A program made the translations under genes and the position numbers. DNA of 64,000 bases from a virus: IMG/VR virus record IMGVR_UViG_3300022752_000026, positions 32,001 to 96,000 of that record. One strand, written 5' to 3'. Below the pieces are notes generated by a model. It made no database searches, was not told the DNA's origin, and saw nothing but the letters and a program-made list of their open reading frames with translations. Below, in pieces: positions 10,657-61,695 of this stretch. Every line of letters starts with the position of its first letter. Positions within the stretch are counted from its first letter, which is position 1.

Positions 10657-10730
10657 GCGGACGTTGCATATCGGTAGTGCCTCTGCCTTCCAAGCAGAAG
10701 GGGTGGGTTCAATTCCCATCGTCCGCTCCA
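10657..10730 (+). tRNA. tRNA-Gly (anticodon TCC)
   Basis: Acceptor GCGGACG/CGTCCGC, anticodon loop CTTCCAA, T-arm GGTTCAATTCC, encoded 3' CCA. Confidence 0.95.
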
Positions 10731-10781: not shown

Positions 10782-11018
10782 ATGAGTGAGACAGTCTTTG
10801 ATGTAGACACCGACACGTTACTTATAGATGACACGGGTGAACATGACCGTTTTGCTCACTATGTTGAAAAAGAGGCTGCTACTCGTTCCATGGTTTATGG
10901 AGAACCAGTAATCGCCCTCTGCGGAAAAATCTGGGTTCCTTCTCGTGACCCAGAGAAATACCCAATCTGTCCTACATGTAAAGACCTTTTCAAAATGATG
11001 TCAGACGGAGGCAACTAA
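10782..11018 (+). CDS. DUF3039 domain protein (actinobacterial)
   Basis: GEHDRFAHYV...GEPVIALCGKIWVPSRDP..YPICPTCK. Confidence 0.9.
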   Translation: MSETVFDVDTDTLLIDDTGEHDRFAHYVEKEAATRSMVYGEPVIALCGKIWVPSRDPEKYPICPTCKDLFKMMSDGGN

Positions 11019-11401: not shown

Positions 11402-11568
11402 ATAGACATCCACCCCTCATATCCAGCATCGGGGTTTGCTTCTTTCCACTCTTTCATTTTTTGATTTTCTTCAGCCCAATTCATTCTATGACTTGGCGCT
11501 CCACAAAAATCACAAGGGTCGCACTTTACTTCTTCATAAACGTGACGACAGATAGGAAAATCCACCAT
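11398..11568 (-). CDS. Small Zn-finger protein (56 aa)
   Basis: Not in ORF track; MVDFPICRHVYEEVKCDPCDFCGAPSH...GYEGWMSI. Confidence 0.55.
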   Translation of the reverse strand: MVDFPICRHVYEEVKCDPCDFCGAPSHRMNWAEENQKMKEWKEANPDAGYEGWMSI

Positions 11569-12466
11569 CTCTTACACCTATTCTTTCACGAGCGATTGTT
11601 GCATAGTCGGGGTTCAGTTCTATACCCACAAAGTTTCTTTCGTGACGTAAAGAAACAACGCCCACTGTCCCAGAGCCAGCAAATGGGTCTAGAACTAAAC
11701 CACCGACACGGCTTCCAGCAAGAACGCATGGTTCCACGAGTTCTTCTGGCATGACAGCAAAATGCGCTCCAGGAAACGGTTTAGTTTTTACAAACCAAAC
11801 ATCCCTTTTGTTTCTTTTGCCATCATAAATCTTATAAACAGGCGGTCTTGCATTTACTCCTGGAATTCCTTGGCGTTCAACAGAACCCTTAGCGCCTTTA
11901 GTTCCAGCAGGAATAACGCCATCTTCTTTTATTGCTTCGCTATCAAAATAGTATTTATTTGATTTACTAAGTAAAAACACATACTCATGTGACTTAGTGC
12001 ATCGGTCTTTTACACTTTCAGGCATTGGATTTGGTTTTGCCCAGATAATGTCCTGTCTGAGATACCAACCATCTGCTCGTAAAGCAAAAGCAAGCATCCA
12101 AGGAATTCCAACTAAATCTTTTGGTTTAGTTCCTTCGGGGACAAGTCCACCAGTTTTATGCTCAAGGTGTCGCTCGTTGTGCTTCTTTCCTAGGTTTCCA
12201 GCAGGTCCTTTTCCAGAACCAGAATAACTATCCCCAATATTGAGCCACAAAGTTCCATCATCTTTGAGAACTCTTTTTACTTCTCTAAAGACTTCAACCA
12301 TCTTGGCTACATACTCGTTTGGGTCTTCTTCTAGACCAATCTGTCCGTCATTGTTGTAATCACGCAAACCCCAATAAGGAGGAGAAGTAACGCAGGTATC
12401 TACTGTTCCGCTTTCAATTTCAGCAATCTTGGCAAGAACATCTCCTACTTTTATTTCATAGCCCAT
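11534..12466 (-). CDS. DNA methyltransferase, beta class (SPPY, likely N4-cytosine)
   Basis: TSPPYWGLRDY catalytic motif N-terminal, VLDPFAGSGT SAM motif C-terminal. Confidence 0.93.
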   Translation of the reverse strand: MGYEIKVGDVLAKIAEIESGTVDTCVTSPPYWGLRDYNNDGQIGLEEDPNEYVAKMVEVFREVKRVLKDDGTLWLNIGDSYSGSGKGPAGNLGKKHNERHLEHKTGGLVPEGTKPKDLVGIPWMLAFALRADGWYLRQDIIWAKPNPMPESVKDRCTKSHEYVFLLSKSNKYYFDSEAIKEDGVIPAGTKGAKGSVERQGIPGVNARPPVYKIYDGKRNKRDVWFVKTKPFPGAHFAVMPEELVEPCVLAGSRVGGLVLDPFAGSGTVGVVSLRHERNFVGIELNPDYATIARERIGVRDGGFSYLSSRL

Positions 12467-13451
12467 TGACAGCAGCCACCCTTCTCTTTGCTATCTCAAC
12501 ATACTCTTCATTTTGGTCAATTCCAATAAAGGAGTAACCATCAATAACTGCCGCTCTACCCGTTGAGCCAGAACCCATAAATGGGTCAAGCACAACTCCA
12601 GCAGAAGGAGTAATCAAGCGTACCAAGTAGCGCATCAATTCTGTGGGTTTGACAGTCGGGTGAGTGTTCTTTTCTTCTCCCATTCCGTCATTTCTTTCTT
12701 TAGTGTTTGCTTTAGCGCAGTAGAAGAATCTTGCGGCGCTACCGTCATCTCCCATTGCCCTGAATCCACCTTCAGTTTCTTGACCAGATGCAAAAGTTGT
12801 TGATACTGCTTTTCCACGCTTGGCTGGATACGCTCCGCCCTTCGCTCTTGGGAACAACTTAGTGACCTCGTCACTCCCGTCGTGAATAAGATTTGCTGGA
12901 TAACGACCTTTGGTATTCATCTCCTGTGTGTATTCAGGATTTTTAAGTTGTCCGAATCCAGACCAATCTTCAAGTTTATTGATAGGAACAGGCTCACCTG
13001 GCACTCGTGATAGTTCTATGTTAAGAGCCCCAACTCCCCACTTCTTCAAGTTGTTCTCAACTGTTCCTTCTAACGGTTTTCTTGCTAACGCAATCGGTTC
13101 ATGGGCAGGTTTCAAAGCAGTTCCAAGTCCATCACCAACACTCAAAGATTTAGGAAACCCCTGTGCGTAGACCCACATAATTTGGTCACGAATTTCAAAA
13201 CCAGCATCTTCAATCGCACAGACCATGCGGTGATAAGTCCGAGACCCACTAAAAACTAAAATATGCCCACCAGGTTTGATAGCGGCGAGCGCTTTTTTCC
13301 ACACATCAACATTGAAAGCAATTCCTGTGGAATCCCACTTCTTACCCATAAACCCAAGTTCGTATGGAGGGTCGGTGACTATTGCATCAATGCTGTTAGG
13401 TTCTAAAGAATCTAGAACATCCAAACAGTCGCCATGGAGAAACCGAATCAC
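12456..13451 (-). CDS. DNA methyltransferase, beta class (DPPY, N6/N4)
   Basis: TDPPY, HPTVKP, VLDPFMGSGSTG. Confidence 0.93.
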   Translation of the reverse strand: MIRFLHGDCLDVLDSLEPNSIDAIVTDPPYELGFMGKKWDSTGIAFNVDVWKKALAAIKPGGHILVFSGSRTYHRMVCAIEDAGFEIRDQIMWVYAQGFPKSLSVGDGLGTALKPAHEPIALARKPLEGTVENNLKKWGVGALNIELSRVPGEPVPINKLEDWSGFGQLKNPEYTQEMNTKGRYPANLIHDGSDEVTKLFPRAKGGAYPAKRGKAVSTTFASGQETEGGFRAMGDDGSAARFFYCAKANTKERNDGMGEEKNTHPTVKPTELMRYLVRLITPSAGVVLDPFMGSGSTGRAAVIDGYSFIGIDQNEEYVEIAKRRVAAVNGL

Positions 13452-13462
13452 CCACAAACCTT

Positions 13463-13527
13463 AACACAAACACACAACTCACTTCCCCGTTTTCCCTCCG
13501 TTTCTTATAACGGAATGAAGGCGCGAA
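13463..13527 (+). repeat. Dispersed intergenic element, copy 1
   Basis: AC-rich tract, C/T tract, TAACGGAATGAAGGCGCGAA at 13508-13527. Confidence 0.85.
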
Positions 13528-16628: not shown

Positions 16629-16937
16629 TTAGTTGTCATAACCCATATCCTTGAAATATTTCATTCCCTCTTCTGTGGCACTAAAGTGAGCCGTTAGGTC
16701 TTCATCGTAATCTACTTTTACATAACCGTGCTCAAACAAGTTCATTAGGCCGTCATTTACTCCCTGCATGATTTCGTCATACATCTCTGGCATCAAAGAT
16801 TTCATCAATGGAAAGTTATAGACATAAGTAACTTCACCATCTTCATCAAACCCATCTTCTTCTAAGATACCAATTTCTATCAAATAGTCAACAAAGGCAT
16901 CTTCGTCGTCTGGGTCCATAGGCATGAAATCTTCCAT
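16629..16937 (-). CDS. Acidic hypothetical protein (possible winged helix)
   Basis: LIEIGILE..GFDEDGE..Y; L...G.V..DYDEDL.A.F..TEEG. Confidence 0.7.
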   Translation of the reverse strand: MEDFMPMDPDDEDAFVDYLIEIGILEEDGFDEDGEVTYVYNFPLMKSLMPEMYDEIMQGVNDGLMNLFEHGYVKVDYDEDLTAHFSATEEGMKYFKDMGYDN

Positions 16938-16969
16938 TAACTCAACATACCACTGCTAGACTTATTCGT

Positions 16970-17257
16970 ATGGCTTACGCACGGTTTCTTAAATCAGATA
17001 TTTACGTCATCATGTCTTCAGGTGGGTTTCTTTATTGTGTCACTTGTAGCCTTATAGATGACATGAATGGCGCAGGATATTCTGCGCACAACACTCAAGA
17101 CATGATTGACCACATCAAACAACATGAAAATTCTGGTCACAGAGTTCCAGAAAACATATACGAAGAACTGCTTAAAGATGACGCAGAAAACTTCCCAAAC
17201 CAAAACACACAAAACACACAACCCTCCCCCACTCCTCCTCCTCCGTTAACGGAATGA
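16970..17257 (+). CDS. Hypothetical Zn-binding protein whose C-terminus reads through repeat copy 2
   Basis: MAYARF..SDIYV...CVTC...H...H...GH.VP; tail NQNTQNTQPSPTPPPPLTE is encoded by the repeat. Confidence 0.7.
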   Translation: MAYARFLKSDIYVIMSSGGFLYCVTCSLIDDMNGAGYSAHNTQDMIDHIKQHENSGHRVPENIYEELLKDDAENFPNQNTQNTQPSPTPPPPLTE

Positions 17258-17290
17258 AGGCGCGAAAAAACACACTTTTCATTGTATAAG
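17199..17290 (+). repeat. Dispersed intergenic element, copy 2
   Basis: TAACGGAATGAAGGCGCGAA at 17247-17266; perfect palindrome TCCGTTAACGGA; downstream TTTTCATTGTATA. Confidence 0.85.
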
Positions 17291-17341
17291 TAAATAATAA
17301 GCACAAATCACTTTTTCTTTTTAGCCTTACTCTTATAGTTA

Positions 17342-17824
17342 ATGGCTACTAAGAAAAAGAGTGCGTCAACACGACACACCAAATCAGTATCAAAAGCCAA
17401 GGGAATTGGTAAGGCCATACACCTGCTCGCTTCAGAGGGAAAGTCATATAGACAAATATCAAGCGAGTTAGGTGTCTCTAAAGGAACTATCTCTTATCAC
17501 TTAGGAGATAATCAAAAAGACAAAACGATAGGACGAACAAGACATTATCGTTCTCAGATAGATGCCTACCTACAAAAAGAAAAGGCAGCAGTTAAGAATT
17601 GCCCAGACTGCGGAGAAGAAAAGCAGTGGTTTCAGATGGACTTTGACCACGTCCGCGGAGTCAAGAAATTCAGCCTCTCTCAGTATCACCGCCACACTCA
17701 GAGCCTAAAAGTTGTCCAGGCTGAGGTGGCTAAATGCGACATTGTGTGCGCTTGTTGCCATAGACTACGGACCTATATGAGGGCTTTGGAGGCAAAAATC
17801 GCTCGTGAAAATAAGGTGGACTAA
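17342..17824 (+). CDS. HTH plus HNH-like endonuclease
   Basis: KSYRQISSELGVSKGTISYH; CPDC...MDFDHVRG.K...KCDIVCACCHR. Confidence 0.8.
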   Translation: MATKKKSASTRHTKSVSKAKGIGKAIHLLASEGKSYRQISSELGVSKGTISYHLGDNQKDKTIGRTRHYRSQIDAYLQKEKAAVKNCPDCGEEKQWFQMDFDHVRGVKKFSLSQYHRHTQSLKVVQAEVAKCDIVCACCHRLRTYMRALEAKIARENKVD

Positions 17825-18347
17825 AGAACGAGACCAGCGTTTTTGGGATAAAGTCTGGATAGACGAAGAAGAAGACGACTGTTGGTATTGGATTGCTGCC
17901 ACAACAAGCAGAGGTTATGGAGCATTTGCTTATACTAAAACAAAGATTATTACTGCTCACAAACTTTCATACTCTCTTGCCAAAAACAAAGGAGTTTTAG
18001 TTTCCCCCAAACTACACGTTATGCATATGTGCGACAACAAGATATGCGTAAATCCAAGCCATCTACAACTAGGAACTGCTAAAGAAAACAACAGAGATGC
18101 CATAGAACGTGGACTTGCTACTTCTATAGAGCAGATAGTTGGTCGTCCTAGCCAAAGAAGATACTGTAGTCATGGACACCCAAGAACTAAGAAGAACACC
18201 ATCATCAAGTCCAAGAACGGATACCAATATCCTCTCTGTCATATCTGCTACCTAGCAAACAACAGAGCATATAGAAAACGAGTTGCTAAGGCTAAAAAGT
18301 CTCAATACATGCGTGACTACAGAAAAAGAAAGGCTCAAAATGTCTGA
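17805..18347 (+). CDS. HNH homing endonuclease
   Basis: RFWDKV...CWYW...GYG..., AHKLSY, VMHMCDNKICVNPSHL..GT..EN. Confidence 0.9.
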   Translation: MKIRWTKERDQRFWDKVWIDEEEDDCWYWIAATTSRGYGAFAYTKTKIITAHKLSYSLAKNKGVLVSPKLHVMHMCDNKICVNPSHLQLGTAKENNRDAIERGLATSIEQIVGRPSQRRYCSHGHPRTKKNTIIKSKNGYQYPLCHICYLANNRAYRKRVAKAKKSQYMRDYRKRKAQNV

Positions 18348-18864
18348 GCGCTATGACTATAGAGAGGCTTTTACCCTTGGCCACGGCTACAACCAAAAGA
18401 TGGCCAAAAGACTTCAAGACCGAGGAGTTGATTGTTACCCACCGTCCCTCAGATTTGCAGACGATACTCCTGAAGCACGTTTTGAGTTTACCCAAAACGA
18501 AAAAGACATTGTCCTTAATAATCCAAGTGGTTTGATAGAGGTCAAATCAAGCAGCACCTATTGGGAAGATGGAGACCCTTCTTCTATAAGAAGCAATTTC
18601 TCCAGCGTTTTTGTAGATACAGTTTCTTCCTACGAGGAAAAACTCATTAAGCCAATAGCCTATATTTTGGTATCTCAGCATACTGATGGTGTTTTGGTTG
18701 TTCCAGTCACAACAAAACCTCTGTGGCAAGTAAAGAAGAATCTTTATGACAAAAAGCAGGGAATCTTTGATGATTTCTACTTAGTTGAGTTTCAGCACCT
18801 CAAAACTTTTGATGAGTTGGTTTCTCACATTATGAAACAACAACAACTACAAACAACTACATAG
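18340..18864 (+). CDS. PD-(D/E)XK nuclease-like protein
   Basis: KDIVL...IEVKSS motif. Confidence 0.6.
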   Translation: MSERYDYREAFTLGHGYNQKMAKRLQDRGVDCYPPSLRFADDTPEARFEFTQNEKDIVLNNPSGLIEVKSSSTYWEDGDPSSIRSNFSSVFVDTVSSYEEKLIKPIAYILVSQHTDGVLVVPVTTKPLWQVKKNLYDKKQGIFDDFYLVEFQHLKTFDELVSHIMKQQQLQTTT

Positions 18865-18879
18865 TAGTAAAATAAGATT

Positions 18880-18965
18880 GCTGGGCCTTATCTTAGGATT
18901 GGCTTAGTTACCACTGGCCCCCCCTCGCAAATTGTCCACAATTGTCGGGGGGGAGCCAGCCCAGC
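18880..18965 (+). ncRNA. Candidate structured small RNA (86 nt)
   Basis: Ends pair (GCTGGG/CCCAGC); inner CTGGC-C6/G6-A-GCCAG stem; TAAAAT 6 nt upstream. Confidence 0.55.
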
Positions 18966-19059
18966 AAAAAACACACAACACACACCCCTACCCGCCTTTC
19001 CCGCTTATAAAGGAACGAAGGCGCAAAGATTTGCACTTTTTATTGTATAGGTGTATCCT
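18966..19059 (+). repeat. Dispersed intergenic element, copy 3 (variant)
   Basis: TAAAGGAACGAAGGCGCAAA at 19008-19027 with the same AC-rich and C/T flanks. Confidence 0.8.
19031..19059 (+). promoter_or_regulatory. Sigma70-type promoter, leaderless transcript
   Basis: TTGCAC-N17-TATCCT-N6-ATG(19066). Confidence 0.7.
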
Positions 19060-19065
19060 GTCTCC

Positions 19066-19230
19066 ATGACACAAACCATAGACCAAAACGACTTCTACGA
19101 AATCATTGACGAGACATTTGTCTGCTGCGATGAACACCAATTTGTTTACTACTGCAAAGCCCACTCAGAGAGAATGGGTTGCCAGTTCTGCGCCTTTGAC
19201 CCTTACAGTAAATGTGGTTGCGATGAGTAA
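19066..19230 (+). CDS. Cys-rich small protein (54 aa)
   Basis: Not in ORF track; MTQTIDQNDFYEIIDETFVCCDEHQFVYYCKAHSERMGCQFCAFDPYSKCGCDE. Confidence 0.65.
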   Translation: MTQTIDQNDFYEIIDETFVCCDEHQFVYYCKAHSERMGCQFCAFDPYSKCGCDE

Positions 19231-19351
19231 GAAAGCATCAGTTGCTGCCAACAGGGTTGTTATCTGTCCTGAGTGTAAGAAAGAGATTGAAGTTCGCTCT
19301 GGCTTTGCGCACCACACACTAGTTCGTCATATAAAGGAGCATAAGAAATGA
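19223..19351 (+). CDS. C2H2-like zinc-finger peptide
   Basis: CPEC...L.RHIKEH. Confidence 0.65.
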   Translation: MSKKASVAANRVVICPECKKEIEVRSGFAHHTLVRHIKEHKK

Positions 19352-19503
19352 AACTCTTTGGATTAGAGATAAAGCGAAAAGTAAAACCACTCTCTAGTGG
19401 AATGATGGTTAATTGCTACGGCTGCGGTAAACAGTTCTTTCTGTACTCTACTAAAATTAGAGTAATGAATTACTGCTCTCAATGCTCACCTAGAGTTGTA
19501 TAA
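19348..19503 (+). CDS. Zinc-ribbon peptide (51 aa)
   Basis: Not in ORF track; CYGCGKQF...NYCSQC; AAGGAG SD, ATGA overlap. Confidence 0.6.
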   Translation: MKLFGLEIKRKVKPLSSGMMVNCYGCGKQFFLYSTKIRVMNYCSQCSPRVV

Positions 19504-19508
19504 AAGCC

Positions 19509-19603
19509 CACACAAAAAACACACACCTCTCCCCCGTTCTCCCTTTTCGGTTAACGGAATGAAAGCGCGAAGATTTGCATTTTCTATTGTATAGTGCTAT
19601 AGT
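19509..19603 (+). repeat. Dispersed intergenic element, copy 4
   Basis: TAACGGAATGAAAGCGCGAA at 19552-19571. Confidence 0.85.
19575..19603 (+). promoter_or_regulatory. Sigma70-type promoter, leaderless transcript
   Basis: TTGCAT-N17-TATAGT-N6-ATG(19610). Confidence 0.8.
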
Positions 19604-19609
19604 GTTCTT

Positions 19610-19888
19610 ATGAAGACACCAGACAAGTTTGCACTAGAGCGTTACTTTCCTAAAGGAATAGTTCCATCTGATGTAAGCGCTGTTCTTGAGATAAAAGGAA
19701 TCAAGACTCTCAAGAGCGGAGCAAAGTTCAAAGTAAAAGGCGAACGCGGAATGTGGACATTTCTTTATGTTCAAGGTGAAGCGGTTACTTGCTTTGACGG
19801 CCTAGGTCAGTTTAGAAGTATCTCAAAAGACAAAGTGAAAAAGGGAATCAATCGCTCTAAGCGCGAGATTGCTTTGGAGAAGGCTTAG
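19610..19888 (+). CDS. Hypothetical basic protein (SH3-like beta barrel possible)
   Basis: FKVKGERG.WTF...FRS. Confidence 0.7.
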   Translation: MKTPDKFALERYFPKGIVPSDVSAVLEIKGIKTLKSGAKFKVKGERGMWTFLYVQGEAVTCFDGLGQFRSISKDKVKKGINRSKREIALEKA

Positions 19889-19976
19889 TTTTTAGTCCAG
19901 TTGCCTCGTAAGCATCAATAGCGTCATCCATCGTGTAGGGATGTTCTGCCGAGCAGTTGCCACAATTACGACACAT
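19857..19976 (-). CDS. Small Cys-rich peptide
   Basis: MCRNCGNCSAEH... Confidence 0.45.
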   Translation of the reverse strand: MCRNCGNCSAEHPYTMDDAIDAYEATGLKTKPSPKQSRA

Positions 19977-20154
19977 CGTCATCTCCATGGTCATCGCAGA
20001 CAGAATAAAGTCTTTCTTTGATTGCCTTGATGCCAACAGACTTTTTTGCACAGAAGTAGCAAAAAGACCATTGATGCAAGTTCTTCTCACGAAGGTGGTC
20101 CAAATACTGAATCAGCCTTTGGTCCCTACTCCACTGAGTGTGTTGACTTGGCAT
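19966..20154 (-). CDS. Small Zn-finger protein
   Basis: Perfect TATAAT 6 nt before ATG; CYFC...VCDDH. Confidence 0.65.
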   Translation of the reverse strand: MPSQHTQWSRDQRLIQYLDHLREKNLHQWSFCYFCAKKSVGIKAIKERLYSVCDDHGDDDVS

Positions 20155-20182
20155 AGTCTTATTATAGCGTTACAGTTACCCC

Positions 20183-20302
20183 ATGAGAAAACTACTAGCA
20201 AGACCTTTTTGGTTTATCCACGACCAAGCAGATTGGTTCAACCGAGTTGGTTGTTATATTGCCTTTGGCAAGAAATGGAGGACGATGCATGACCCACAAT
20301 GA
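20183..20302 (+). CDS. 39-aa peptide
   Basis: MRKLLARPFWFIHDQADWFNRVGCYIAFGKKWRTMHDPQ; TACAGT 5 nt upstream, back-to-back with the 20154 promoter. Confidence 0.4.
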   Translation: MRKLLARPFWFIHDQADWFNRVGCYIAFGKKWRTMHDPQ

Positions 20303-21207: not shown

Positions 21208-21349
21208 GCGCATCAACATCAACCTCGGCTGGGGGACTTGGGATAGTTGGGGGTTTGGTCTCAACTATTGTCCTTATGCTAATTCTGTAACTATTGAGTT
21301 TATCCATTGGTATTTTTATGTAGAGATGTGGAGCCCTAGTGACGACTAA
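21191..21349 (+). CDS. Aromatic-rich small protein (52 aa)
   Basis: Not in ORF track; MARGSKRININLGWGTWDSWGFGLNYCPYANSVTIEFIHWYFYVEMWSPSDD bridges both neighbours. Confidence 0.55.
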   Translation: MARGSKRININLGWGTWDSWGFGLNYCPYANSVTIEFIHWYFYVEMWSPSDD

Positions 21350-22007
21350 AAAGGTTGCTTACTGTTATGCCCGCGTCTCTACCTCCATGCAAGCAGAAGA
21401 AGGCGTAAGTCTTGATGCTCAAGAAAAGCAACTTATTGGGGCAGCAGAGTTCAATGGATACGAAGATGTTCTTATCTTGCGTGAAGAAGGAAAATCTGGA
21501 AAAAGTATCAAGGGAAGACCTGTTCTAACTAAGGCTTTAGAAGACCTTGATAACGGAAAAGCGGAAGCACTTTTTGTAACTCGTTTAGACCGACTTGCTC
21601 GCTCTACAAGAGACTTTTTAGAGATTGTTGACCGTTCACACAAACATGGTTGGCGTCTAATGCTTCTTGATTTAGGTTTAGATACTGCAACTTATCAGGG
21701 CCGCTTTGTTGTAACCATTATGTCTGCAATGGCTGAAATGGAGCGCGGAATGATTTCTATGCGCCAAAAAGACATTCATCAAGATAGAAGAAGCAGTGGT
21801 AAGCGCTGGGGAGTTGATTTAGGACCACTACCACTTGTATCTAAAGACATTGAAGAAAGAATAAATAAAGAAAGAGATGCAGGACTTTCTTATAAAGAAA
21901 TTTCTGATAATTTGAATAAAGATGCAATACCAACTCTTCTAAAAGGTAAAAAATGGTATGCATCAACTGTTCGTGACATATATTTACGTTATAAATCAAC
22001 TAGTTAG
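21339..22007 (+). CDS. Serine recombinase (resolvase family) with short C-terminal DNA-binding region
   Basis: YARVST catalytic Ser, SGK...RP, TRLDRLAR, AEMER; LN...IPT..G.KW..STV. Confidence 0.92.
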   Translation: MTTKKVAYCYARVSTSMQAEEGVSLDAQEKQLIGAAEFNGYEDVLILREEGKSGKSIKGRPVLTKALEDLDNGKAEALFVTRLDRLARSTRDFLEIVDRSHKHGWRLMLLDLGLDTATYQGRFVVTIMSAMAEMERGMISMRQKDIHQDRRSSGKRWGVDLGPLPLVSKDIEERINKERDAGLSYKEISDNLNKDAIPTLLKGKKWYASTVRDIYLRYKSTS

Positions 22008-30638: not shown

Positions 30639-30851
30639 TATGCGTCACTCGCTTCCTCTTACTGGCCCAAAAAGACGGGACAAAGTTTTGCCTCTGGGTG
30701 TGGCTTAAGTCAATAGTGACTATACCCCTAATTTTTAATTTTTGCTGACAGACCCGCCGTAGGGGGCTAATACTAGCCAATACCTGTATAGAAAGTATGC
30801 CAAAATACTCTATAAGGCGACCCTGCCGAATACCATCGGGAATTGTATACA

Positions 30852-53415: not shown

Positions 53416-54489
53416 ATGAAAATATGCGTATACACAATAGCCCTAAATGAAGAGCAGTTTGTTGAGCGTTGGTATAACTCGGTAAAAGATGAAGCAGATT
53501 ATCTACTTATTGTTGATACTGGCTCCACGGATAAAACCGTTGAGTTGGCAAAATCTTTAGGAATCAATACAGCACAGATATGTGTAAAGCCTTGGAGGTT
53601 TGACACTGGAAGAAATGCTTCGCTTGCGTTAGTTCCTGCTGATATGGACTACTGCATACCTTTAGATATGGATGAAATTATGCTTCCTGGTTGGCGTGCG
53701 GAATTACAAAAAGCATTTGATGCCGGAGCAACTAGACCTAGATACAAATATGTTTGGAATTGGAACCCAGACGGAACTCCAGGTCTTACCTTTGGTGGAG
53801 ATAAAATTCATAAGAGACATGGATATAGATGGAAGCACCCAGTCCATGAAGTTCTTACTCCAGACCGCATGACAGAAATTCCTTTTTGGACAGAAGCAGT
53901 GATGGAGCATCATGCCGATAATTCAAAGTCTAGGGCTCAATACTTACCTCTACTAAAACAATCTACAGAAGAAGACCCGAACGACGATAGGAACGCTTTT
54001 TACTACGCAAGGGAACTTTTCTTCTATAACAAATTTGGAGAGGCGTCAGCAGAGTTTAGACGCCATCTATCTCTACCTACCGCAACGTGGAGAGCAGAGA
54101 GAGCAGCGTCATATCGCTATTTATCAAAACTTCATCCAAGCGAATCAGAAATTTGGCTCACTCTTGCTCACGAAGAAGACCCAAGAAGAAGAGAAGCCTC
54201 TGTTGATTTAGCAAAACTCTATTATCGTCAGAGTCGCTGGCAAGACTGCTATGAGGCTGCTAATAGAGCGCTAAGCATCAAAGAAAGACCAATGGAGTAT
54301 CTAAACGAGGCTGAAGCGTGGGGATACACCCCTCACGATATGGCTTCTATTGCTTCATATCATTTACAAAAATATGAAGAAGCAGTGATGCACGCTAAAA
54401 ATGCCCTTGAGTTAGGTCCAGATAGTGAAAAAGAAAGACTGATGGCCAACCTACAGTTCTGCGAGGATAAATTAAATGACAAAGAATAG
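53416..54489 (+). CDS. GT2 glycosyltransferase with TPR repeats
   Basis: VYTIALNEE, VDTGSTDKT, F...RN.SL, LDMDE, HE; helical C-terminal repeats; TAGGAT 6 nt before ATG. Confidence 0.9.
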   Translation: MKICVYTIALNEEQFVERWYNSVKDEADYLLIVDTGSTDKTVELAKSLGINTAQICVKPWRFDTGRNASLALVPADMDYCIPLDMDEIMLPGWRAELQKAFDAGATRPRYKYVWNWNPDGTPGLTFGGDKIHKRHGYRWKHPVHEVLTPDRMTEIPFWTEAVMEHHADNSKSRAQYLPLLKQSTEEDPNDDRNAFYYARELFFYNKFGEASAEFRRHLSLPTATWRAERAASYRYLSKLHPSESEIWLTLAHEEDPRRREASVDLAKLYYRQSRWQDCYEAANRALSIKERPMEYLNEAEAWGYTPHDMASIASYHLQKYEEAVMHAKNALELGPDSEKERLMANLQFCEDKLNDKE

Positions 54490-58954: not shown

Positions 58955-59896
58955 TCACTCGCTTCCTTTTTTCTCTGTTTCATAGTATGCATAAGGGTCT
59001 GCTTCCTTATACAAATCGCTAATTACCTCTTCAACGGCTTCACCGTTGTCAAACATCGGGCAAATAGCGAAAAATTGGCATTTCCATTTGCAGTCACGAG
59101 TTGTTGGTCGTGGATACGCAACAAAATGATGAGGCTCTCCAGCATCAAGAGCAGTTCTTGTTCGCATCATGTCTGACAGAACTCCATGAATTCTTAGCCA
59201 GAAATTTCTAAGCGCAAACGTATTATGACGAACTTCAATCTGTTTGTAGTATGGAGGCTTAGAAGCAGCAGTGCGCTTTACCTTCTTTAGCATTGTAAAA
59301 ATGCCACCTTCGGTGCGTTGTTCTTCTTCACCATGCTTGAGTTTTTCTAAAATCATATATGTAAGAATTTGTTCATTCATATTTGCTGTTCCAGCAAACT
59401 CATCTAGAGAGCCACCTACGGTTTTGAAGTCACGGAATAGTTTGACGCCATCCGCCTTGCGACGAACACGCATATCAATCTTTCCTTGTAGTTCAACCTC
59501 TCCGTTGAACATTGGCACGACAATCTTTTCTTCCGTTGAGACCATTTCAAGTTCTGCGTCTAAACCTTCTTCAGCAACCCATTGCTCGTATCCCTCAAGC
59601 ATGATGCGACCCATCTCTGCCTCTGATTCCAAGTTTGAGGTATCTTCAAAGTTTTCTAATAGAATTTTTTTGTCAGCATCTACTAACTCGGCGTGTGCTT
59701 GAAGCAGCGGAACGTTTTGAGAATAGTGAGTATCTAAGGCTGCGTGAATGCGACTACCAAATGCGAGCGCACCAGTAAATTCTTGAAACTTAGGCTGTAG
59801 ACCGCGGTAGTAAGTAAGCCACCAACGTCTACGGCAATCTTTGAAAGTTTGTATCTCTGAGTTGGAGATACGAACTACTTTGTCATTTTCTGTCAT
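58955..59896 (-). CDS. Cas4/RecB-like PD-(D/E)XK exonuclease
   Basis: SNSE..TF..C.RRW, GS.IH, GKID...DFKT, C.W.C.F..IC. Confidence 0.88.
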   Translation of the reverse strand: MTENDKVVRISNSEIQTFKDCRRRWWLTYYRGLQPKFQEFTGALAFGSRIHAALDTHYSQNVPLLQAHAELVDADKKILLENFEDTSNLESEAEMGRIMLEGYEQWVAEEGLDAELEMVSTEEKIVVPMFNGEVELQGKIDMRVRRKADGVKLFRDFKTVGGSLDEFAGTANMNEQILTYMILEKLKHGEEEQRTEGGIFTMLKKVKRTAASKPPYYKQIEVRHNTFALRNFWLRIHGVLSDMMRTRTALDAGEPHHFVAYPRPTTRDCKWKCQFFAICPMFDNGEAVEEVISDLYKEADPYAYYETEKKGSE

Positions 59897-61695
59897 AGTT
59901 TTCCACTCTTATCATCTTGTAGTAGTCGCAATAGTTGGTCCTTATCACGAACAATCTGTTCAAAGTTATCAGCCTTTGTCTCAAGAACGTGGATGACACG
60001 CTCTTCAATAGTGCCTTCCGTGACATAATCAGTGATAACAATTGAGTCGTGAATCTCGCTTCCAATGCGGTGAACTCGGTCTAATACTTGCTTGTAATCA
60101 ACTAATGACCAAGGTCGCTGAAGCATAACTAGACGGCGAGCCGTCGTCAAGGTAATACCGACTCCACCTGCCTGTGCCGTAAAAAGAACCCACTTAGTGA
60201 CACCAGATTGAAAATCATCAATTGCTTGCTGACGCTCATCTTCGTCTTGGTCGCCAGTAATTAGTCCATGTGGTATTTTCTTCTTAGTCATCTCAGCGCT
60301 TAGAAGATTGATAAGTTGTTTGGAGACAGCGCTTACAGCAACTGAATCATCTCCAAAGTCTCCGTTTTCAATGTCTTCCATCAATGCTTCTACCTTACAA
60401 GAAGGCATGTCTAAAATAGCCTTTGTTTCTCCAGTAAGTTCATCTACTTCTAAAGTAGCACTAGCACTAGCAAACTGTAAAAGACGTATGGTCTGAGTCA
60501 AAATACTTGGAGCAGAGAGAATGTCTCCAGAAGAGAGTTCTGCAATCATGTTGTCACGCATTTGCGCATAAGCCTTGGCTTGTTTTGTAGACATCTCAAC
60601 ATCTCGGCGCTCATTCATTACTGGCGGTAGATGAGGCAAAACAACTTTTTTTAACATACGACGCATATATGGATTTACGCTCTTATAGAACTCATCAGTC
60701 ATTGTTGGTTTGACGCCAAGAACCATCATTCCACCAAAGGCATTGAGCATGACATCAATCATTCGGTCAATCCACTTGGTCTTTGAAGGCCAGTCTTTTG
60801 GAGACAACCAGTGAAGTATTGCCCATAGGTCAACTACATTGTTTGCAATTGGAGTTCCAGTAAGTGCAAAACGGATTTCAGCATTGCCACTAGCAGACCA
60901 CAAAGCGCGACTTTGTTTGCTCTTTGGGTCTTTTGAGCGATGAATTTCATCAGCAATTACAGCCTTAAAATCTATATTGTTGAGTTCTCTAAGATGAACC
61001 TCGCAACGGCTTTCACTAATTTTTTCATCTTGTCCGCCGCAAGCCTTGCATCTAGTTAGTGCAATAGAGCCATAGGAAACGAGTCTTGAGTGAGAGCGAA
61101 GGGATTCCCAGTTGATAATAAAAACTTGGGCTGGTTCTTCAAATTGCTTTTTACGCTGAGCAGCAGAGCCTTTGATTATTTGAGTGACTACAGAATCAGG
61201 CCACCATTTTTGGAACTCTCTGGCCCAGTTCTTTTTCAAGGTGTTAGGACAAACTACAAGAATAGGAAAAACATCTTCACCTTTATCGTGAAGAGCCTTT
61301 AGAGCCCTAATAGCCTGAGCGGTCTTTCCTAGTCCTGGTTCATCGGCTAGAAGCGCTCGTTTGGCTGTGCTTAGGAAGGCTACTCCAGCCCTTTGATGAG
61401 GGAATAGGGCTTCATCACCTTCATAGGTATCTAACTCTCTTAGAGCCAGCGCAGGATTGATTCTTGTGTTGATATGGTCTGCTGCCCACTCAGCAAGTTT
61501 GGGTTGAATCTCTAGTTGGTCTTTGAATGTAGACCGTAGGGCTAAACATGTTGTCCAACTTAGTGGAACCCTCCAGACACCCTCAGAAACGTTCCAGGAG
61601 GCCCCTGGAAGGCTTTTACAGAGTTCTTTTAGCCTCCAGTCAGCACTTATTACTATATGTTCGCCTGAGGCATCTATGTCCACTGAAACTGGCAC
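59893..61695 (-). CDS. SNF2-family helicase
   Basis: LADEPGLGKT, DEIH, LTGTP..N, GGVGITL, DRVHRIG. Confidence 0.93.
   Translation of the reverse strand: MPVSVDIDASGEHIVISADWRLKELCKSLPGASWNVSEGVWRVPLSWTTCLALRSTFKDQLEIQPKLAEWAADHINTRINPALALRELDTYEGDEALFPHQRAGVAFLSTAKRALLADEPGLGKTAQAIRALKALHDKGEDVFPILVVCPNTLKKNWAREFQKWWPDSVVTQIIKGSAAQRKKQFEEPAQVFIINWESLRSHSRLVSYGSIALTRCKACGGQDEKISESRCEVHLRELNNIDFKAVIADEIHRSKDPKSKQSRALWSASGNAEIRFALTGTPIANNVVDLWAILHWLSPKDWPSKTKWIDRMIDVMLNAFGGMMVLGVKPTMTDEFYKSVNPYMRRMLKKVVLPHLPPVMNERRDVEMSTKQAKAYAQMRDNMIAELSSGDILSAPSILTQTIRLLQFASASATLEVDELTGETKAILDMPSCKVEALMEDIENGDFGDDSVAVSAVSKQLINLLSAEMTKKKIPHGLITGDQDEDERQQAIDDFQSGVTKWVLFTAQAGGVGITLTTARRLVMLQRPWSLVDYKQVLDRVHRIGSEIHDSIVITDYVTEGTIEERVIHVLETKADNFEQIVRDKDQLLRLLQDDKSGKL

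Follow-up and report, generated by a model that had tools for sequence, protein, structure and literature searches.

The phage genome and the genes around the element

The stretch of DNA analysed here, referred to as the window, is 64,000 nucleotides long and corresponds to bases 32001-96000 of a 124,941-bp IMG/VR virus record; the DNA runs that hold it are lake, river and drinking-water metagenomes. Its helicase (59893-61695, minus strand) shares 75% identity with the counterpart in Actinomycetia phage DSL-LC01, and the runner-up matches are Microbacterium and Arthrobacter phages. DSL-LC01 is described as a lake phage assembled from a metagenome, with Actinomycetia as the predicted host (PMC10611076). 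The host of the present phage is probably an actinobacterium.

The element under study lies between nuclease genes and a small cysteine-rich gene (Table 1). Upstream of it, two genes with HNH domains are followed by a gene whose 174-aa product belongs to no Pfam or PHROG family and has no relatives in the viral contigs; the PDB matches of this protein, to designed repeat proteins, are spurious. Downstream, at a distance of 2.4 kb from the element, lies a gene for a small serine recombinase (21339-22007, 222 aa), which falls into PHROG integrase/invertase families (E 6e-44 and 1.5e-39).

Table 1. Features of the locus, in window coordinates
Feature	Position	Strand	Remark
HTH+HNH gene	17342-17824		upstream
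Second HNH gene	17805-18347		upstream
174-aa gene, no family	18340-18864	+	inside indel cassette ~18194-18865
TAAAAT, -10-like hexamer	18868-18873	+	6 nt before G18880
5' segment	18880-18913	+	pairing not conserved
Long hairpin, 16-18 bp, tetraloop UCCA	18914-18959	+	conserved core
Apical 22 nt with palindrome AATTGT-CC-ACAATT	18926-18947		21/22 positions invariant
C-rich, G-poor rut-like tract	18960-19009	+	5' part of repeat copy 3, directly after hairpin
88-nt repeat, copy 3 of 4	18966-19051	+	nhmmer
TATCCT-N6-ATG, putative leaderless promoter and start of 54-aa Cys-rich gene (19066-19230)	19054-19068	+	

A stable, non-coding stem-loop present in one copy

In a sequence-only reading, the 86 nucleotides beginning at G18880 had been proposed to form a stand-alone structured RNA, and the letters on which this proposal was built are all in place: GCTGGG at 18880, CCCAGC at 18960, six A residues at 18966-18971, the upstream TAAAAT and, within the long hairpin, the GC-rich stem CTGGC-C-C5UCG / CG7-A-GCCAG capped by AATTG-TCCA-CAATT. 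The predicted energy of the 86-nt RNA is -42.9 kcal/mol, against -29.6 +/- 3.3 kcal/mol for shuffled sequences (z -4.0; 0/200 shuffles as stable), and the minus strand of the same stretch is equally stable (-44, z -4.2). Among non-overlapping 60-nt plus-strand windows across the 125-kb genome, the one with the hairpin ranks sixth in stability.

No known RNA family is matched at the element, and the statement that it is not a tRNA cloverleaf is borne out. At gathering scores the sole Rfam match is a tRNA at 10657-10727, none of the three weak matches obtained at E up to 10 overlaps the element, and ARAGORN reports nothing besides the tRNA-Gly at 10657-10727; with neither a tRNA nor a tmRNA match by ARAGORN, a degenerate tRNA or tRNA-like fold is ruled out. 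The element is also non-coding, as had been claimed, since the lineages differ by indels of 3, 2 and 1 nt (see below), which exclude a coding frame through the hairpin. The accompanying remark that no start codon follows the hexamer is mostly correct, the exception being a 9-codon frame, from TTG 18878 to TAG 18905-18907, which starts only 4 nt past the hexamer and is open in 5/5 contigs. The window starts this frame with TTG, L003 with CTG and L005 with ATG, and five of its nine residues differ, which speaks against a conserved peptide; the frame is probably not translated.

A GC-rich stem-loop is one of the features of an intrinsic terminator, and the element has it. CCCAGC and then A6 come after the stem on the plus strand, a T6 run precedes it on the minus strand, a U-tract 0-2 nt after the stem is absent in all lineages, and a terminator scan gave no entry at the element. 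Hairpins followed by T-runs, i.e., canonical terminators, are present elsewhere in the genome (for example at genome positions 6.8-7.5 kb). Because the U-tract is missing in every lineage while the genome uses U-tract terminators at other places, the element is not an intrinsic terminator on either strand, which for the forward strand agrees with the sequence-only reading. Before the start of the window, at genome 6811-7485, a stretch of less than 700 bp contains three near-identical canonical terminators, each with a GC stem and a T-run, and the host polymerase thus meets U-tract terminators elsewhere in the genome.

The element is single-copy in the genome. Covariance model R1, applied to the genome and related loci (174,265 bases), returned the known copies and no paralogue, the rest of its output being reverse-strand hairpin echoes and weak matches (E 0.29-0.63). 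The apical palindrome has one exact copy in the window, and the sole other match, with one mismatch, lies at 30841. In assembled contigs of metatranscriptome run X7, the full 3 kb are contained in one 10-kb piece; in those of metatranscriptome X14 the pieces end at 18887 and restart at 18955, a contig hole that proves nothing. DNA carry-over is possible in both runs.

Occurrence in related phages and gene cassettes

Exact-pattern scans of three collections, the only type of search applied to these large collections, found the element in five contigs and one partial contig, which represent three lineages: the window and L025 (lineage 1), L003 and L004 (lineage 2), and L005 and the partial L023 (lineage 3). 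In viral contigs, the repeat-core pattern gave three loci, of which L003 and L004 are real and L002 is a chance match in high-GC DNA; a 23-mer of the hairpin gave none, and an apical 19-mer gave two, both previously found. The 5'-block pattern hit 26 viral loci (2 real and 24 unrelated) and the pattern TAAAAT-N5-block 33, two of them real; the 31 others were rejected, with at most 18.4 bits under model R1 as compared with 107-126 bits for the true copies. Metagenome contigs contributed 21 loci, three real (L005, L025 and the partial L023) and 18 unrelated, and none of the 10 pattern loci in representative bacterial and archaeal genomes is real. A blastn search of 18000-20000 against the phage collection found no match. 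In DSL-LC01, the closest named relative, model R1 detected no copy of the element, and this phage has no DNA similarity to 16900-20300.

The window is 79.6% identical to L003 in the region surrounding the element and 91.7% identical overall to the L005 region, and gene content changes on both sides of it. On the left, the window, L025 and L003 carry a cassette made up of the 174-aa gene and an altered C-terminus of the HNH gene; L004 and L005 lack it, and their homology resumes at 18866, the right junction. The conserved block begins 2-3 nt after the HNH stop codon in L004 and L005, and 16 nt after the stop codon of the 174-aa gene in the window. As the element is present in L004 and L005 without the 174-aa gene, it is not part of that gene; rather, it trails whichever gene is last. 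To the right, only the window has a 92-aa DUF7246 gene (19610-19888), which sits immediately after repeat copy 4; L003, L004, L005 and L025 all skip from ~19595 to ~19891.

Conservation within the element

In the 5' segment, the blocks GCTGGGCC, CTTAG, TGG and TAGTTACCA are invariant, with three variable patches between them, and the identity between the window and L003 (73.5%) is not above the regional value of 79.6%. The first small hairpin of this segment differs in register between lineages, and in an alternative 5' hairpin of 8 bp, which joins 18880-87 to 18901-08, 95% of cells are paired and none shows a compensatory change. The multi-branched fold with enclosing ends, which the sequence-only reading had described, is present in the letters of the window, but its three-way junction is not conserved. 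Two of the six pairs of the closing stem GCUGGG/CCCAGC are lost in L005, and its 3' half, CCCAGC, really belongs to the adjacent 88-nt repeat, the other copies of which align with it at their 5' end.

The long hairpin is the sole part of the element in which pairing is kept across lineages, and in its apical 22 nt only position 18945 varies (T or A). The stem consists of 5+8+5 bp with a C.A mismatch in the window, of 5+6+5 bp in L003 and L004, where a joint loss has shortened the 5' arm by 3 nt and the 3' arm by 2 nt, and of 13+5 bp, with no bulge or interruption, in L005. The hairpins of L005 and the window are 63% identical, yet the region as a whole is 91.7% identical. Over all lineages the energy of the long hairpin ranges from -25.7 to -28.8 kcal/mol on the plus strand and from -22.7 to -29.0 kcal/mol on the minus strand, the latter range being wider because two plus-strand G.U pairs of the L005 hairpin turn into A.C mismatches on the minus strand.

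Covariation among homologues, which had been suggested as a check on the fold, gives a mixed result: the pairing of the long stem is kept by means of paired indels, but column-wise covariation is not significant, with one pair changed on both sides and 84/500 and 91/500 shuffles reaching the observed values in the three lineages. Moreover, paired changes in a long DNA palindrome can arise by template switching during replication, without any selection on RNA. It is on these points that a reading without selected function would be built, in which a recombination junction carries a relic palindrome whose symmetry template switching restores, with TAAAAT either a chance occurrence or a remnant of coding sequence. 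The small number of lineages, the non-significant covariation, the lack of the element in DSL-LC01 and the position at indel junctions are in line with such a relic. The persistence of an intact element whether or not the cassette is present, and across a genome divergence of ~20%, together with a plus-strand stability held within 3 kcal/mol, argues against it, and we consider it decidedly improbable.

The same symmetry raises the question of whether the 46-bp palindrome, which has a non-palindromic CC in the middle, serves at the DNA level as a site of binding or cutting, either as a recombination site of the serine recombinase encoded downstream, as an operator or as a cruciform. The frozen apical palindrome, the presence of the recombinase gene 2.4 kb downstream, the indel junctions that adjoin the element and a hairpin that, in the window, is equally stable on both strands all fit a site of this kind. 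On the other hand, indels shift the distance from the centre to the outer arms between lineages, which suits a fixed protein footprint poorly, the G.U pairs favour a plus-strand RNA, and the recombinase is only 222 aa long and not adjacent. As the genome has a single copy, the palindrome cannot be one of an inversion pair. A function at the DNA level thus appears quite unlikely. An attP beside an integrase was likewise dismissed, the recombinase being small and 2.4 kb away.

The TAAAAT hexamer and the possibility of a small RNA

Leaderless genes with a TANNNT hexamer are reported to be common in Actinobacteria, and the same design is described in Deinococcus-Thermus (PMC3160421). In the present genome, a TA...T hexamer stands 6 nt before the start codon 16 times, vs 0-8 times at each other spacing from 0 to 15, in a crude count of in-frame ATG/GTG codons around the beginnings of ORFs that are 50 aa or longer; there are 30 TA...T-N6-ATG/GTG sites before ORFs of at least 40 aa, and five of these use TAAAAT. 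The hexamer upstream of G18880 thus matches the leaderless -10 of the phage, as had been argued. Leaderless starts are found across the genome, for example at window positions 10782, 13961, 15088, 19066, 19610, 53416 and, on the minus strand, 56300, and a canonical terminator lies ~10 nt upstream of the leaderless-type -10 at 53416. A phage RNA polymerase or sigma factor for special promoters was not found with PF00940 and PF04542, a weak negative as the PF00940 control was silent everywhere.

The hexamer is kept in 5/5 contigs and the five nucleotides after it vary. This conservation is confounded, because in L004 and L005 the hexamer overlaps the V-K-stop codons of the HNH gene. In addition, TAAAAT occurs 69 times in the genome, mostly within genes, so that the hexamer alone is not diagnostic; six of the 69 lie 5-7 nt before the start of an ORF of at least 30 aa. 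No -35 element accompanies TAAAAT. A real transcription start at G18880 is likely but unproven.

If TAAAAT fires at G18880, the product might be a stand-alone, trans-acting phage sRNA of ~86-92 nt, with both ends base-paired for stability, which would act on a phage or host target or bind a protein via its invariant apical loop. The -10 match with its spacing, the hexamer kept in all five contigs before a variable pentanucleotide, the lack of an ORF and of any Rfam or tRNA match, and the invariance of 21/22 apical positions agree with this possibility, for which DrrS of Mycobacterium tuberculosis offers a precedent (PMC5360333). The 5' part of the putative RNA, however, is no better kept than neighbouring DNA (73.5% between the window and L003) and its small helices are not maintained; nowhere else in the phage genome is there a mismatch-free complementary stretch of at least 13 nt, and a trans target inside the phage genome was rejected on this basis. 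The overlap of TAAAAT with coding sequence in two contigs, its 69 occurrences and the absence of the element from DSL-LC01 weigh on the same side. Taken together, an sRNA of this kind is possible but doubtful. Should a discrete RNA be made, it would be a rare phage sRNA candidate in Actinobacteria.

In a more specific form, which is unlikely, a stable RNA of ~90 nt would be made from a leaderless-type promoter that has lost its gene, and the invariant apical loop would be the working part, carried on a changeable stem. Such an RNA could be a protein-binding decoy, or a regulator tied to the abutting four-copy promoter repeat, and it would define a new phage sRNA family in a group of hosts from which hardly any are known.

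The C-rich tract, the repeat and the putative downstream promoter

The tract that follows the hairpin has 23 C and 3 G in 50 nt, which places it in the top 0.04% of plus-strand windows. When plus-strand windows of the 125-kb genome are ranked as C-rich and G-poor, 17195-17244 comes first, 13449-13498 second, 18956-19005 third and 19499-19548 eighth; these are the 5' halves of the four 88-nt repeats, and the top three are copies 2, 1 and 3. Over the full 124,941 bp, nhmmer detects exactly four repeat copies. The stretch 18960-19053 is 91.5-96.8% identical from one genome to another, vs ~80-92% in the flanking DNA (about 80% for L003). Within one genome the four copies are only ~62% alike. Since copy 3 is well kept between genomes while the copies are this dissimilar to each other, each copy is held individually.

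The hairpin adjoins only one of the four copies. The other three have the same C-rich tract without a hairpin, and the hairpin is therefore not a general need of the module. Copy 1 is located in a divergent gap and has no plus-strand gene upstream. Two neighbouring DNA methyltransferase genes (310 and 333 aa, both phrog_67) occupy 11534-13457 on the minus strand and are directed away from it.

The arrangement of the element tail-to-tail with a minus-strand repeat RNA, as imagined in the sequence-only reading, finds no support, the repeat bearing on its plus strand a leaderless promoter architecture, TATCCT-N6-ATG. Promoter function of the TATCCT site is predicted from its sequence: the lineages share the hexamer in the form TATYCT and differ in the N6, which is the same pattern as at TAAAAT. 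The 54-aa protein encoded downstream has only two database relatives.

Transcripts from TAAAAT might cross the repeat into the 19066 gene, and the structure would then be a cis-acting 5' leader that controls read-through (attenuation or antitermination) or the stability of the RNA. Alternative pairings can be drawn: GCUGGGCC has as possible partners 18901-08, CCCAGC and, for its GGGCC, the GGCCC on the 5' side of the long stem. A terminator U-tract is also absent. The next gene, however, has its own conserved leaderless promoter, no switch is marked by covariation and, the 19066 gene being without a Shine-Dalgarno sequence, a leadered transcript would be translated poorly. A leader function is accordingly regarded as very improbable.

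A possible transcript end and insulator

In uncultured freshwater actinophages, very little is known of the signals that mark where transcription units end and that insulate leaderless promoters. The reading we favour, with a probability of roughly 0.45, is tentative and takes the hairpin and the C-rich tract as a Rho-dependent type of transcript-end and insulator module, placed before a conserved leaderless promoter. We infer the following steps. A polymerase that has started at the TAAAAT hexamer, or is coming through the HNH/nuclease genes upstream, would reach the hairpin and transcribe it; Rho, whose use by the host is assumed, would load on the C-rich tract and free the polymerase before the next promoter is overrun. 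Exonucleases acting from the 3' end would then trim the RNA to the hairpin, which would protect it from there on. TAAAAT may also start an RNA of ~80-90 nt that ends at the same hairpin, as a by-product of the module or a second user of the stem.

The evidence for this module is comparative and comes from three lineages. It consists of the position after whichever gene is last, the pairing retained despite sequence change, the steadier stability of the plus strand, the lack of a U-tract in a genome that has such terminators elsewhere, the extreme C-over-G tract, the -10 match of TAAAAT, the probable actinobacterial host and a precedent in Escherichia coli (see below). Against it stand the non-significant covariation, the possibility of template switching, the three repeat copies that have the tract but no hairpin, and the location of copy 1 in a divergent gap. 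The reading as a transcript end leaves unexplained the frozen apical 22 nt and the conserved blocks of the 5' segment. If it is correct, the phage would combine, in a compact design at gene-cassette junctions, a U-less protective hairpin, a Rho-loading tract and a leaderless promoter.

Comparison with known systems

With intrinsic terminators the element shares a GC-rich stem with C and G runs located after a gene, and it differs from them, including the genome's own terminators with T-runs, in having no U-tract on either strand in any lineage. A U-less RNA capped by stems at both ends is known from the host group in DrrS (MTS1338) of M. tuberculosis, described as an RNA whose base-paired 5' end coincides with the transcription start and whose 3' stem is long, imperfect and free of poly-U; it is cut from a longer transcript, and its promoter has a -10 of the TANNNT type (PMC5360333). 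As described there, DrrS is chromosomal and DosR-regulated, unlike the present element, whose RNA is putative and to which it has no sequence relation.

Closer in arrangement are the Rho-dependent 3' ends of Escherichia coli, which are reported to lie just after stable stem-loops that have no U-rich tail and are followed at once by rut sites (Dar and Sorek, 2018; PMC6061677). The element likewise has a stable, U-less stem-loop at the end of a gene and, immediately 3' of it, a C-rich, G-poor, rut-like tract. By comparison with the E. coli ends as reported, the phage stem is longer (16-18 bp), its apex is invariant and a -10-like hexamer lies just upstream; moreover, Rho dependence and an RNA 3' end are putative at the phage locus, and the host is a probable actinobacterium.

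The second parallel is provided by the PeSL (promoter-early stem-loop) cassettes of T4-like phages, in which, according to the published descriptions, an intergenic stem-loop with poly-C and poly-G stands beside a conserved promoter element of ~100 bp (PMC2839356; PMC4122927). As in those accounts, the region of the present element contains small ORFan and homing-endonuclease genes, and the element is found at gene-indel junctions between close relatives; the stem-loop lies directly upstream of a conserved early promoter, putative in function, at these junctions. The composite itself is not repeated, the element being single-copy and joined to one of the four repeat copies. In other respects that the PeSL descriptions cover, the phage promoter is leaderless, of the TANNNT type, in contrast with the sigma-70 consensus and Shine-Dalgarno sequence of PeSL, and the phage is an actinophage relative and not T4-like, with a terminator activity that is only putative. 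If the proposed reading as a transcript end and insulator is correct, it would extend cassettes that shuffle terminators together with promoters beyond the T4-like phages.
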